Part shown: positions 27,184 to 33,207 of the stretch, piece after piece
Position numbering within the stretch: the first letter of the stretch is position 1
Layout: each line of letters begins with the position of its first letter
Origin: a phage
DNA length: 64,000 nt
Strand: one strand, 5' to 3'
Sequence record: PZ583739.1
The notes under the pieces: model-generated
Database searches by the model: none
The model's input: only the letters and a program-made list of their open reading frames with translations
Told to the model about the DNA's origin: nothing
Position numbers and translations under genes: made by a program

Positions 27184-28314
27184 ATGGAAAAATTTATGGC
27201 AGAGTTTGGACAAGGATACGTCCAAACGCCAGTTATATCAGAAAATAATGCCGTTAAATTTAAAATGAGTATAGCAGGGAGCTGTACTCTTTCCACGGTG
27301 AAATCGTATATCAAATTTCAGGATGAACAAATCGGACCAACTACTTTTGGCAATGGTTTGACTCTATTAGAAATTGATACAACTACGAATAAAATTGTTA
27401 ACACGAAAAACTATTCATTGACCAGCACACATGATGTAATCAGTCAGGCATTAATCACCTTTGTGGAATCTGTTCCAGCTGGAAGATTGATTGCTTTTAT
27501 TTCTTCTGGGAAACTAAATGCCTCGCAAACATTAATTGACTGGCTTCGTAAATGTGGCTCAAGAGCATTCCCCGAGAAATGGCTGATTGATAAAGTTGAT
27601 ACATCGTACTCGGCTTTTTACATAACCGGCCGGAACGTAATTGTTTCGGAGCATGTTAAGTATAATGACGGGAAGTTAGTTGAGGATGTTTCGACTCCGC
27701 TTGAAGTCGTTTATGATACCTTTAGTGATATAGGAGCAACAGGCTATCCTGTGCGCATAACGGAAGACGAGAGCACGTATTCATCAACAGGTGATGGAAC
27801 ATCAACCTCAATTAGAAGGTTCCCCACAGAGGACCTGGTGACTCCTATGAGCACATATAACCTTTTACCTTTGGATGTGCTTTACCTGAAGTTTCAGATG
27901 TCATTTGACGCTGAACTGAAAGCCGCCGGGACTGTAAGGACTTCGGTTCGATTCTTTAAAAGTCCTAGCACTTCTCCGATATCAAATACAAACATCGATA
28001 TTGCAGCAAACGTTCCAGCTGGTGCATGGGTAAGTTTCGAAAGATATGTTGAGATTCCAGCGGGAGCCGATGGCTTTACAGTAGTAACATCAAGGACTGT
28101 AGCTGTGGGAACTGGGTCAATACGTAATATTGTTATTGGTGAGATAACCAGAGGTGACTCGGCATTCAAACCAGCTGAATTTGGTGTCAACGGCATAAGG
28201 ATGTCATATGCAAACGATGCAACAAATACAGGCAATACAATTGTAACATTACCAGATGCACAAGCTCCGAGAGCCGGCAAGATATACGCAGCCGAACTAC
28301 GAGAAAAACAATAG
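27184..28314 (+). CDS. 35: long tail fibre hinge protein gp35
   Basis: 376-aa ORF immediately after 34, SD GAGG; position and size as T4 gp35. Confidence 0.8.
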   Translation: MEKFMAEFGQGYVQTPVISENNAVKFKMSIAGSCTLSTVKSYIKFQDEQIGPTTFGNGLTLLEIDTTTNKIVNTKNYSLTSTHDVISQALITFVESVPAGRLIAFISSGKLNASQTLIDWLRKCGSRAFPEKWLIDKVDTSYSAFYITGRNVIVSEHVKYNDGKLVEDVSTPLEVVYDTFSDIGATGYPVRITEDESTYSSTGDGTSTSIRRFPTEDLVTPMSTYNLLPLDVLYLKFQMSFDAELKAAGTVRTSVRFFKSPSTSPISNTNIDIAANVPAGAWVSFERYVEIPAGADGFTVVTSRTVAVGTGSIRNIVIGEITRGDSAFKPAEFGVNGIRMSYANDATNTGNTIVTLPDAQAPRAGKIYAAELREKQ

Positions 28315-28336
28315 GACTCTTCGGAGTCCTTTTTTC
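28314..28336 (+). terminator. rho-independent terminator after gene 35
   Basis: GGACTC-ttcg-GAGTCC followed by TTTTTT. Confidence 0.6.
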
Positions 28337-28338
28337 GT

Positions 28339-28346
28339 TATAAATA
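28339..28346 (+). promoter_or_regulatory. late promoter (TATAAATA) for gene 36
   Basis: exact TATAAATA directly after the terminator, about 35 nt before the gene 36 ATG. Confidence 0.6.
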
Positions 28347-29037: not shown

Positions 29038-32000
29038 ATGGCTACTTTAAAACAAATACAATTTAAAAGAAGTAAGGTTGCCGGCGTTCGCCCGGCGCCA
29101 ACAGTTCTTGCCGAAGGTGAACTGGCTATCAACTTGAAAGACCGCTTACTTTTTACTAAAGATGACACCGGCGCCATCATTGACCTTGGCTTTGCTAAAG
29201 GCGGTAATATTGATGGTAACGTTATTCATAACGGTAACTACACCCAAACCGGTGCCTATACTATAGCCGGAGCTATTTCACAAACGTCTGGACATTTTAC
29301 TACTACTGGTAATATAATAGCAACCGGTGATGTCACAGCAAAAGCCCGTTTAATGACAGATAATGGTGAAGTTCTTGTACGAGGTACAGGAACCACTCAT
29401 GTTCGATTCCAGGATTTGGCTGATGCTCGAGAAAGAGGTATAATTTATTCTCAAAACCGTACTGGGGATACCAAGCAAATCTTGAACGTTCGTGTTCAGG
29501 ATTACACTAATTCAACATCTAATATTTTTGCATTCAACGGCGATGGTTTATTTTATGCTCCGTCTATTTCCAGCGGAACATCGGTGAAATCTCCAGTAAT
29601 TTATACTAATACCGTTGATACTGGTAATAAATCAGCTCTTGATTATGATATATCTTCATTAGCAAATAATAATCCTGCAAGTTCAAGCGCAACAGCTATT
29701 AACTATCTTAGAATAAGTAGACACGCTGTCGATGGAATTAGGTATCGTGAACTTAATAATGTAAATGGTATTTCATGGCATTCTATTTCTACAGCCGGAA
29801 CAGCTAAGTATCTTTGGTCATTTAATGCAGATGGCGATGTCAAAACATCAAATTCTCTTTCCGTTGGCCTACCTGGGGATAGCTCAGGATACTCAACATT
29901 AGGTCCGTCTGCTATCGCACTTGGTGACAATAACACAGGTTTGAAATGGAAACAAGACGGTCAGTTCCATACAATTAATAATGGAGCTTATACTTTACTT
30001 ACATCTCCAACTGAAGTTACAAGCCTTAAACAGTTAGTTGCGGGTTATTCAACCAACGGTTCTGATTTAATTCTTCCTACAACTCAAAACTATCCATTAG
30101 TTATTGTTAATACTACTAATGATAAAAACGGCTTCGGCGACGGTCAAACTCTTTTAGGTTACCACCAAAGCGGCAAATATCACCATTATTTTCGTGGCAA
30201 AGGTGTAACAAACGTTAACACCGATGGTGGGTTGTTGGTTACTCCTGGCAACGTTGAAGTCCGTGGTGGTTCGGTTAATATTGATGGTCTCAGTAATGCT
30301 TCGACAGTGCTTTTTAAAGGAAATACAACAGGAAGTAGTTCAGTTGATAATATAGAGCTCAAAGTTTGGGGTGACACTTTTAATACAGTAGATGGTTCTC
30401 GTAAAAACGTAGTGGAAATATCCGATGCTACTAGCTGGATGCACTATATTCAACGAACTACAGCAGGTAAAGTCGAATCCTATTTAAATGGTACCATGAA
30501 TGTAATTGAAGGATTGTCTGTCAATCAAGATACATCCTTAAAACGCAATCTGTATGTTTCCAATGAAATTAAAGTTCGCGCGGCGAGTGGTCTTCGTATT
30601 TGGAACGATAAGTACGGTGTTATTTTTCGAAATTCAGAAGACCAGCTGCATATTATCCCAACCAATGTTAATGCCGGCGAAAGTGGCGGATTAGGTCCAT
30701 TACGCCCATTAAGTATTATGTTAGACACGGGTCTGGTTAAAATCCCTAACTTAGAAGCAGACCAGGTTTCTTTTAAGGGTAGCGGCGTATTAGAATTCCC
30801 TAATAGTAGCGGCGCATCTTATGCCAACCAGAACACGACTAAAGCTCCGTTGTATCAAGCACTTGATGCTGCGACTCAAGCATTTTATCCTATTACTAAG
30901 CAGAAAAATATCGATTCGAATGTAACTGTTACGCAAGGTATGGACCGAGCTACGAGCGAATACCGAATTGTTGCCCAAGGTGATTTGCTTGGCGATGGCG
31001 TTACAACCGGATTAAAATACTGGCGCTTTACCAAAGAAGGTAACTTCATGGCCCAGAACCGCTTATATGCCGGTACAGCTTATATGAATACCGATGGTAA
31101 TATTGCAGGTTCTATTTGGAAAAAGTATAGCGGTGCTACTAACCTTGACGCAGCGGTGAATACTCGTGTAGGTAAAGGCGGCGATACAATGACAGGTAAA
31201 TTGGTCATTGATGCTCCAGGCGATCCTTTAGTATTAAAAACAACCGCAGGTAATAGCTCGCATATCCGTTCTGATGTAAATGGTACCGGCAACTGGTATG
31301 TTGGTAAAGGTGGCGATGATAACGGAATAGCTCTTTACAGTTATGCTACCAACTCGGGTATGTACATCACTAATGATGGGGCTTTCAACGTAGAACTTTC
31401 TGGTGCTGGCTTAGCAATGCAGATGAATTATTATCGCATGTATGTTAATGGCCGAGCATGGGTTAATACACAAGGTCATGGTTACGGAAACCAATGGCAA
31501 ACAGAAGCTCCTTATTTCGTCGACTTTGGTGAATCTGTTCCTAAAGATAGCTATATGCCAATTATCAAAGGAAAAAGCACTCTAATTACCGACGGATATT
31601 CTACTAAAGCAGACTTTGGTATTATTCGATTAGGTGGAGCTGCTACTTGGGGTTCTGCTGTTATTCGTGTGGGTTCTGCCGAAAGCGGCGATGCAAGCCA
31701 TCCTAATGCAATATTTGTATTTCAGGCCAATGGTGATTTTGTTGCACCTGCCGGTTTACGAGCCAGAGCTAACCTAGGCGTGGGCACAATCCCGGTATGG
31801 GGCGGCGCATCCATTGCCATTGGGGACGATGACACCGGCTTAGTCCATGGTGGTGACGGTCGAATTAATATGTATGCTAACTCGCAACATATTGCAAGCT
31901 GGGGAGCCGGTTATCAGATTCATGAAGGTCTTTGGGATACCCATGGGGCTTTGTGGACTGAAACAGGAAAAGCTATTATTTCTTATGGGCATTTAGTCCA

Positions 32001-32382
32001 ACAAAGTGATGCCTATTCTACATATGTCCGTGATGTGTATGTCCGTTCTGATATTCGTGTTAAAAAAGACCTTGTTAAATTTGAAAATGCTTCTCGGAAG
32101 CTTTCTAAAATTAACGGCTACACATATATGCAGAAACGTGGAACTGACGAAGAAGGTAATCAGAAATGGGAACCTAATGCTGGTTTAATTGCTCAAGAAG
32201 TTCAAGCTATTTTACCTGAATTGGTTGAAGGCGACCCTGATGGTGAAGCTTTACTTCGTTTGAACTATAACGGTGTAATTGGTTTAAATACAGCTGCAAT
32301 CAATGAGCACACTGCAGAAATAGCAGAATTGAAATCAGAGATTGAAGAACTTAAAGCTTTAGTTAAATCATTGTTAAAATAA
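29038..32382 (+). CDS. 37: long tail fibre distal subunit gp37 with C-terminal chaperone-like module
   Basis: 1114 aa; [43 protein letters not shown]... matches gp37 N-terminus; C-terminal SDIRVKKDL...GYTYMQK... then heptad-like [22 protein letters not shown]. Confidence 0.88.
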
Positions 32383-32387
32383 TAAGA

Positions 32388-32401
32388 GGGGCTTCGGCCC
32401 C
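32388..32401 (+). other. intergenic GC hairpin between genes 37 and 38
   Basis: GGGGC-ttcg-GCCCC directly before the gene 38 SD; no strong T-run, so probably not a full terminator. Confidence 0.35.
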
Positions 32402-32413
32402 TTGGAGGTTTAT

Positions 32414-33196
32414 ATGGCAGTAGTAGGACCGTGGGTAGGGTGGTCTGCGAGGGTACAAACTGGGGACCCTTGGATGGGCGGCGCTGCCCAACGATTGAGA
32501 ATGGGTATTCCGTTTTGGATGAGTAATATGGTAGGTCGGTCTGTTGAAATAATTCACACACTTGGAGCCGACCATAACTTTAACGGGCAATGGTTTAGAG
32601 ACCGTTGTTTTGAAGCCGGTGCTGCCCCTATTGTGTTTAATATCACAGGTGATTTAGTATCTTATACTAAAGATGTTCCGTTGTTCTTTATGTATGGCGA
32701 TACCCCTAATGAATACGTTACTTTGAATATTCACGGCGGGGTCCATATGTGGGGCCGTGGTGGTAACGGTGGGACCCGTGTTTGGGTAGCGGGTACAAAT
32801 GGTGGTGATGTAATTCAAAACGACATTGGTGGCAGACTCCGTATCTGGAACTATGGCGTTATAGCTTCAGGGGGCGGCGGCGGTGCCGGATGTGCTTCAA
32901 ATAACTCTTGGCTTGTGGCGGGTACAGCTGGTGGCGGTGGCGGTAGACCATATGGATTAGGTGGTACTAATGGCGCCGTAAACCCAGGCGGCAACGCTAG
33001 TTATACCGGACCAGGTGGCGGTGGTAGCTTTGGTGGACAGTGGGGTGGTGGTAATGGCGGCGACGCGGGTGGGGCTGGTGGCGGCGCTTACGGACGAAGC
33101 GTTACATACGGCTCACAAGGCGGAGCTGGACGAGCTGTATTCGGAAGTTCTCCTTCATGGGGCGCTACAGGCACTATCTACGGCTCCTGGCTATAG
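32414..33196 (+). CDS. 38: T2-type receptor-binding adhesin gp38 (glycine-rich motifs)
   Basis: ATG 32414 after SD GGAGG (track start 32402 is TTG); [11 protein letters not shown]...; C-terminal half has poly-Gly motifs separated by variable segments. Confidence 0.85.
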
Positions 33197-33207
33197 TACA
33201 TAAGCGC

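Follow-up and report, generated by a model that had tools for sequence, protein, structure and literature searches.

[quoted passage not shown] We asked which kind of gp38 is encoded in a 64,000-nt stretch of phage DNA from sequence record PZ583739.1 (the window), and how far its variable parts point to a receptor. A sequence-only reading had proposed a T2-type adhesin with a conserved N-terminal attachment domain, followed by poly-glycine motifs whose intervening segments are the likely determinant of host range. Based on the comparisons below, we put the probability that gene 38 of this JS98-like (Gaprivervirus/Dhakavirus) T-even phage encodes a monomeric adhesin of the T2/T6/S16 type at about 0.93.

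The 24 kb around gene 38 are ~96% identical to the Gaprivervirus phages UPEC07, TH55, vB_YenM_P8, DK-13 and MN01. The gene is one that is already catalogued, and public data already contain an identical protein. Genetic work of the 1980s described its adhesin family, a modular layout was recognised in 2011, and structures followed in 2018 and 2026. Coordinates of all features are collected in Table 1.

Table 1. Features of gene 38, its upstream region and the gp37 partner in the window.
Feature	Position	Strand	Basis
T4-type late promoter TATAAATA upstream of gene 36	28339..28346	+	pattern search
Gene 37, distal long-tail-fibre subunit, 1114 aa, predicted trimer capped by gp38	29038..32382	+	Pfam gp37_trimer, Gp34_trimer, Peptidase_S74
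gp37 tip segment, aa ~950-1003	31885..32046	+	subtype pairs with gp38 N-domain subtype
gp37 C-terminal intramolecular chaperone, S74 aa 1004-1063 plus coiled-coil tail	32047..32382	+	Pfam PF13884, 1.5e-12
Intercistronic stem-loop AGGGGC-UUCG-GCCCCU	32387..32402	+	sequence, predicted fold
Shine-Dalgarno GGAGG for gene 38	32405..32409	+	sequence
Gene 38, T2/T6/S16-type receptor-recognising adhesin	32414..33196	+	ORF; Pfam, PDB and PHROG matches
N-terminal attachment domain, aa 1-45, RB69/PP01-type subtype, Trp 7, 20, 35	32414..32548	+	Gp38_N profile
Conserved beta-helix core, aa 46-111	32549..32746	+	identity to relatives; predicted strands, pLDDT 85-94
Glycine-rich specificity domain, aa 112-240	32747..33133	+	Gly motifs (polyglycine-II sandwich) and five variable loops
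Variable loop A, aa 122-127, RVWVAG	32777..32794	+	entropy; PP01 loop A, W119-I124
Variable loop B, aa 161-171	32894..32926	+	entropy; PP01 loop B, Q161-V170
Variable loop C, aa 186-192, NGAVNPG	32969..32989	+	entropy; PP01 loop C, N184-W189
Variable loop D, aa 204-212, GSFGGQWGG	33023..33049	+	entropy; PP01 loop D, N204-Y209
Variable loop E, aa 225-234	33086..33115	+	entropy; PP01 loop E, N225-S231
Conserved C-terminal strands returning to the beta-helix, aa 241-260	33134..33193	+	invariant residues; strands predicted at 242-256

The gene and the family of its product

The reading frame of gene 38 runs from an ATG to a TAG stop and encodes 260 aa plus the stop. A program-made list of open reading frames begins the gene at a TTG at 32402 instead, but the ATG at 32414 is the better predicted start, because GGAGG lies 4 nt upstream of it and the Gp38_N profile starts at that methionine. 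This GGAGG is kept in P8, JS98, IME281, UPEC07, MN01 and EAWsc9. Between it and the gp37 stop there is a hairpin with a UUCG loop, and JS98 and T2 have hairpins at the same place with other stems (GGGCCC/GGGCCC and GAGGGC/GCCCTC, respectively).

Glycine accounts for 69 of the 260 residues of gp38 (26.5%) and for 55 of the 149 in aa 112-260, which raises the GC content of nt 331-783, toward the 3' end of the gene, to 58%, compared with 40% for the whole window. A glycine-rich peptide quoted in the sequence-only reading is present letter for letter at aa 153-206. We rejected overlapping reading frames, such as the Pro-rich one at 32851-32994 (- strand) and another at 33015-33203 (+ strand), as GGN repeats read in other frames.

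The protein belongs to the gp38 adhesin family along its whole length. Residues 45-260 match the Pfam family PF05268 GP38 ('phage tail fibre adhesin') across the complete profile (1-218/218; 267.4 bits against a cutoff of 25, E 1.4e-79), and residues 1-40 match all of PF21721 Gp38_N (1-40/40; 70.9 bits, cutoff 25, E 8.7e-20). PHROG 2056, 'tail fiber protein; host specificity', is matched at 3e-102. None of the evidence that we found contradicts the GP38 family assignment. The identity as a T2-type adhesin is borne out by an end-to-end alignment with T2 gp38 (45% identity over 262 columns, E 2e-36), and a phmmer search of all PDB sequences returned two proteins only, both of them solved adhesins: 9V85 from PP01 (2e-74) and, over its full length, 6F45_D from S16 (3.6e-47).

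We modelled the protein with AlphaFold2 from 52 homologues; the mean pLDDT is 83, and most of aa 50-260 reaches 85-96. Scores are low for the first 45 residues, as is to be expected of a domain modelled apart from gp37. Searched against the PDB with Foldseek, the model matches 9V85 (target-normalised TM 0.93, rmsd 1.4 Å, 64% identity) and also 6F45_D, and no other fold was found at E<=0.001. The predicted fold is that of a beta-helix plus a polyglycine-II sandwich.

Attachment domain, glycine scaffold and variable loops

Among the 52 homologues, W7 of the attachment domain is invariant, and conservation of W20 and W35 is 90% or higher. The three align with W7, W20 and W36 of S16 gp38, which in the solved structure of the S16 tip dock gp38 onto the gp37 trimer (PMC6851490); S16 gp38 also has a polyglycine sandwich. 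With that tip (6F45) the window shares a gp38 that aligns over its full length, the gp37 C-terminus including the S74 domain, and the three tryptophans, although S16 is a Salmonella phage whose gp38 is ~45% identical and has shorter loops. From S16 we predict that the gp38 of the window docks onto gp37 through the same three residues.

The description of this domain as conserved holds only in part, since the domain is itself modular: aa 1-45 are 89-98% identical to IME281 and P8 but only 53% identical to JS98. Its subtype tracks that of the gp37 tip, the segment that immediately precedes the S74 domain. In six phages we found three pairs of gp37 tip and gp38 N-domain, one in the window, P8 and IME281, one in JS98, and one in T2 and IME341. 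A lock-and-key rule for the gp37 tip and the gp38 N-domain was given by Trojet et al. (PMC3157838). As the subtype follows that of the gp37 tip, the N-domain is better called a small set of exchangeable adaptors.

Behind the adaptor, the beta-helix core (aa 46-111) is 100% identical in JS98 and P8 and 88-97% identical in the T6, M1, PP01 and IME281 alleles. In the alignment of 52 sequences, invariant glycine runs (114-119, 153-157, 173-177 and 213-216) alternate with five peaks of column entropy, which agrees with the poly-glycine motifs and variable segments that had been proposed from the sequence. The alignment delimits these segments as five loops in structural terms, since the peaks coincide with loops A-E of the PP01 crystal structure (Table 1), or as the four hypervariable segments of the Trojet scheme (HVS1-HVS4), which cover these loops and of which HVS3 holds loops C and D. 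Loop B is the block of lowest pLDDT in the receptor-binding part of the model (68). Beyond the loops, A241, V242, P247, W249, G253, Y256 and G257 near the C-terminus are invariant.

We propose that the parts would work together as follows. The gp37 trimer would fold with the aid of its own C-terminal S74 chaperone domain, which would then cut itself off. A single gp38 would cap the exposed gp37 tip through a three-helix N-terminal domain, with Trp 7, 20 and 35 inserted into three equivalent gp37 pockets. The remainder of gp38 would be a short beta-helix bearing a three-layer lattice of polyglycine-II helices formed by the glycine-rich motifs. From its distal face the five inter-motif loops would project and touch an outer-membrane protein at its extracellular loops, and this contact would set which strains the phage adsorbs to. 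The location of gp38 in the virion, the 3:1 stoichiometry, the cleavage of gp37 and the binding of a receptor are all expected here by analogy with the family.

Loop variation and the receptor

The loop set of the window phage is of the JS98 type and occurs in seven GenBank phages (the window phage, P8, MN01, TH44, EAWsc9, JS98 and TH40), and PhAPEC2 and a truncated RZ record likewise carry it. At least nine phage genomes thus carry the allele, as do several metagenomes, with hosts that span E. coli and Yersinia. The exact gp38 of the window is found on at least eight public metagenome contigs (ENA/Logan), beside gp37 of differing length.

The closest named relative is ORF240 of vB_YenM_P8 (XAO54575.1), also of 260 aa, which is identical at 258 of 260 residues (99.2%) and differs by V4E and, in loop B, V168E. 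P8 has the N-domain subtype, the five loops, the gene order, the upstream hairpin and the Shine-Dalgarno sequence of the window, next to a gp37 of 1106 aa. Its record names ORF240 'tail protein and peptidase', and GenBank records of several other gp38 homologues still carry the label 'distal long tail fiber assembly catalyst'. JS98 gp38 (YP_001595373.1), the founder of the allele type, shares the loop set and is 100% identical in aa 46-111 and 96% in aa 112-240, but its N-domain, longer by 2 aa, is of another subtype and goes with a different gp37 tip. The loop substitutions of JS98 relative to the window are V125I, V168E, N190M, S229N and T231K.

Variation within the allele group leans toward the loops. 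Among the seven GenBank alleles there are 74 synonymous and 6 non-synonymous sites in aa 47-260, and all six of the latter fall in loops, which make up 43 of the 214 codons (Fisher p 5e-5). The independence of this test is limited, because the alignment used to delimit the loops itself contains two sequences from this allele group. When the comparison is widened to the 16 members of the 90% cluster, loops hold 8 of the 21 variable sites (p 0.036), the enrichment being weaker once more divergent PhAPEC2-like members are added. By this sequence comparison, substitutions appear enriched in the loops across the full cluster to a real but modest degree, and a confinement of every amino-acid change to loops holds for the seven GenBank phages and not for the cluster.

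Polymorphisms within the family include V125I and G127D in loop A, N190M in loop C (JS98, TH40 and PhAPEC2), and S229N/R and T231K in loop E. The most polymorphic site is residue 168 in loop B, where 14 anchored cluster members have E (nine), A (three) or V (two). Its codon, at 32915-32917, is GTG (V) in the window and GAA in P8. We considered V168 as a unique feature of the window phage and rejected this, as a second cluster member, with a JS98-type N-domain, also has V168 and three have A168.

That such loops govern the host range of the window phage, as the sequence-only reading supposed, is likely by analogy with the family. In a T6-like phage, replacing gp38 from HVS2 onward switches the receptor from Tsx to OmpA, and a single residue can suffice, as Q206L in HVS3 changes OmpF to OmpW. 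Deletion of any tested glycine-rich motif (2-4) or hypervariable segment (1-3) of T6 gp38 gave no viable phage. In PP01, crosslinks join loops D and E to loops 5 and 7 of OmpC, and loop E engages OmpC. Gene 38 would accordingly mark the primary receptor-binding protein of the window phage, which is useful for annotation and for phage therapy, and loops A-E would be the places to engineer or to monitor for host-range mutations.

Although the JS98-type allele is widespread, we found no experimentally assigned receptor for it in the searchable literature on gp38 adhesins and on Dhakavirus, Gaprivervirus, JS98, P8 and RZ phages, and the P8 paper assigns none to P8. The supplements of a preprint reporting a receptor screen of 255 phages, in which the Straboviridae are represented by Tequatrovirus, Mosigvirus and Krischvirus only, offer neither a usable k-mer list nor entries for Dhakavirus, Gaprivervirus, JS98 or PhAPEC2. 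Receptors are on record for other Dhakavirus alleles: OmpF for IME281, FadL for IME341, OmpA for LHE83 and LamB/OmpC for Bp7.

Over the specificity domain (aa 112-240), gp38 of the window is 67% identical to IME281, 62% to the PP01-like PSD2001, ~50% to PP01, and 43-50% to the T2, T6, M1, FL18 and AV119 alleles. The loops resemble different relatives: D and E are most like the T2/IME281 group, C resembles PP01 and PSD2001, and A and B are distinct. T2 (OmpF/FadL), IME281 and IME341 have the architecture of the window with 47-67% identity in this domain, and the counterparts of loop D in this group are SQFGGGNGG and TFQYGAGNGG. For loop E, YGRSVTYGS in the window corresponds to WGKNLSRSG and WGKNVYTSE in the group, whose loops A and B differ from those of the window. 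T2 and IME341 also have the third N-domain subtype and a different beta-helix sequence. In the PP01 receptor-binding domain (9V85), which binds OmpC of E. coli O157, the fold is shared, the loops are equivalently placed and aa 46-111 are 89% identical, but loops A, B, D and E are unrelated in sequence, so OmpC specificity cannot be transferred to the gp38 of the window.

Our best guess, a weak one, is that the JS98-type allele would bind a general porin of the OmpF/OmpC class, and OmpF itself is the leading though doubtful candidate, in both cases because the nearest allele with a known receptor, that of IME281, uses OmpF. We do not take this transfer of specificity further, because identity to IME281 in aa 112-240 is only 67% and the loops differ. 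Much of that identity is in the glycine scaffold. It seems to us unlikely, if conceivable, that the JS98-type loops recognise a receptor that is new to the gp38 list or one that E. coli and Y. enterocolitica have in common, with residue 168 at the tip of loop B as a natural host-range switch comparable to Q206L.

Equally unlikely, in our judgement, is that the gp38 of the window recognises the lipopolysaccharide core or another carbohydrate and not an outer-membrane protein. Such a target would account for the spread of near-identical alleles over phages from E. coli K-12, pathogenic E. coli and Y. enterocolitica, with a 99.2% identical allele in the Yersinia phage P8 and close alleles in the E. 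coli phages JS98, MN01, RZ and EAWsc9. Among gp38 relatives, RB32 uses OmpA plus LPS, and Pet-CM3-4 is reported to use LPS. However, in the literature covered, the characterised gp38 alleles of E. coli phages use the proteins Tsx, OmpA, OmpC, OmpF, FadL, OmpW and LamB, and general porins are conserved in E. coli and Yersinia, OmpF serving other Yersinia T4-like phages.

The gp37 partner and gene order

The C-terminal 194 aa of gp37 match the S16 gp37 that was crystallised with gp38 (6F45_A, E 6e-44), the chaperone region also aligns with gp37 of T2 and JS98, and the partner of gp38 is of the T2/S16 type. By analogy, the window gp37 is presumably auto-cleaved before the serine at ~1004, between VYVR and SDIRVKKD. 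Further toward the N-terminus, aa ~700-950 share only 36-56% identity with UPEC07 and P8, which are elsewhere the closest phages, and are nearest to UP19 (93%) and EAWsc9 (86%). Judged from these alignments, the window gp37 is a patchwork in which aa ~700-950 would come from a different lineage than the closest phages.

This mosaic bears on whether host range might be set mainly elsewhere, by the distal shaft of gp37, by the short tail fibres (gp12) or by barriers after adsorption. The divergence of aa ~700-950 from UPEC07 and P8, the identical gp38 beside gp37 of different length in metagenome contigs, and the role of gp12 in setting the secondary LPS receptor of relatives would all fit, but in T6-like phages exchange of gp38 alone switches the primary receptor, and because gp38 sits on the tip of S16-type fibres, the gp37 shaft there is not the distal part. 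We consider such a main role improbable, and it concerns how much each part contributes to host range, not the identity of gp38.

That gp38 is instead a T4-type assembly chaperone absent from the virion, with receptor recognition in the gp37 tip, is ruled out at the level of sequence and fold and has a negligible probability: the gene name, the map position after g37 and before t, and the 'assembly catalyst' labels on homologues are all that speak for it, whereas BLASTP against T4 gp38 gave nothing better than E 1.9 over 9 residues (4/9), T4 gp38 has no Pfam match where the gp38 of the window matches GP38, the predicted fold matches two solved adhesins only, and the window gp37 has the S74 self-chaperone and lacks Collar, while the T4 gp37 on which T4 gp38 acts has a Collar-type receptor-binding tip plus Phage_fiber and lacks S74.

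Gene 38 stands in the order g34 (1318 aa)-g35-g36-g37-g38-holin t, which is the same in T2, JS98, P8 and IME281. Rfam and tRNA scans of the whole window gave no matches, and a scan for sigma-70 promoters and terminators gave background level only. A pattern search for the late promoter motif TATAAATA found none between the one at 28339 and gene 38. With no such motif directly upstream, gene 38 is probably read from the g36 transcript, and g36, g37 and g38 would then be co-transcribed late from the 28339 promoter. Motifs of the same kind also lie upstream of g34 (23181) and of t (33208).

A patchwork tail fibre

Over 24 kb around the part of g37 that encodes the distal shaft of gp37, the distal long-tail-fibre subunit, the phages UPEC07 and P8 (Yersinia phage vB_YenM_P8) are about 96% identical to the window. 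In the distal shaft itself (gp37 aa ~700-950, window 31100-31900) we found that identity to these two phages is 36-56%, and that the nearest relative of this segment is UP19 (93%), followed by EAWsc9 (86%). Given this divergence from UPEC07 and P8 and the closeness to UP19 and EAWsc9, the tail fibre is a three-way patchwork made up of the gp37 body, the gp37 distal shaft, and the C-domain of the glycine-rich adhesin gp38.

The gp38 attachment domain and its annotation in relatives

The N-terminal attachment domain of gp38 alone matches a second PHROG family, phrog_1121 ("tail fiber adhesin", 5.7e-20), and in tblastn many Klebsiella phage adhesins match gp38 over aa 1-44/66 only. These matches suggest that the adaptor domain is also present in adhesins that bind their receptors through a part with no relation to the glycine-rich domain of gp38.

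In many phage GenBank records, homologues of the gp38 adhesin are named "distal long tail fiber assembly catalyst", "tail protein and peptidase" or "hypothetical protein". Such labels on adhesin homologues are the T4 gp38 name carried over to an unrelated protein. The deposited gp38 sequences of vB_EcoM_RZ (NC_070780.1) and Bp7 have frameshifted C-termini that are non-homologous past about aa 205-220, and the RZ gene runs across both ends of its record. The frameshifts probably have no biological basis and instead reflect mistakes made in assembling or sequencing the glycine-rich, GC-rich stretch.

Intercistronic signals and the gp35 hinge protein

Features of the tail-fibre region, in window coordinates
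Feature	Position	Context
Late promoter motif, T4-type, TATAAATA	23181, 28339, 33208	motifs precede g34, g36 and t (holin gene) by 30-45 nt
UUCG-tetraloop hairpin, intercistronic	28313-28330	3' of g35, followed by a T-run; just ahead of the g36 late promoter
UUCG-tetraloop hairpin, intercistronic	32387-32402	after g37 and before the Shine-Dalgarno sequence of g38
gp38 N-terminal part, aa 1-58	32414-32590	phrog_1121 match

JS98 and T2 both have a hairpin at the same g37/g38 position but with differing stem sequences, suggesting that the structure itself is under selection. The late promoter motif occurs 8 times in the whole window, a total that is not above chance (13/100 shuffles reach 8), so it is the placement of the motifs alone, and not their number, that is suggestive.

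The gp35 hinge protein (window 27184-28314) matches the Pfam domain ILEI (interleukin-like EMT inducer / PANDER-like) at aa 57-128 with 29.1 bits, narrowly clearing the cutoff of 27, and its counterpart in the GenBank relative EAWsc9 bears the same ILEI-type annotation.
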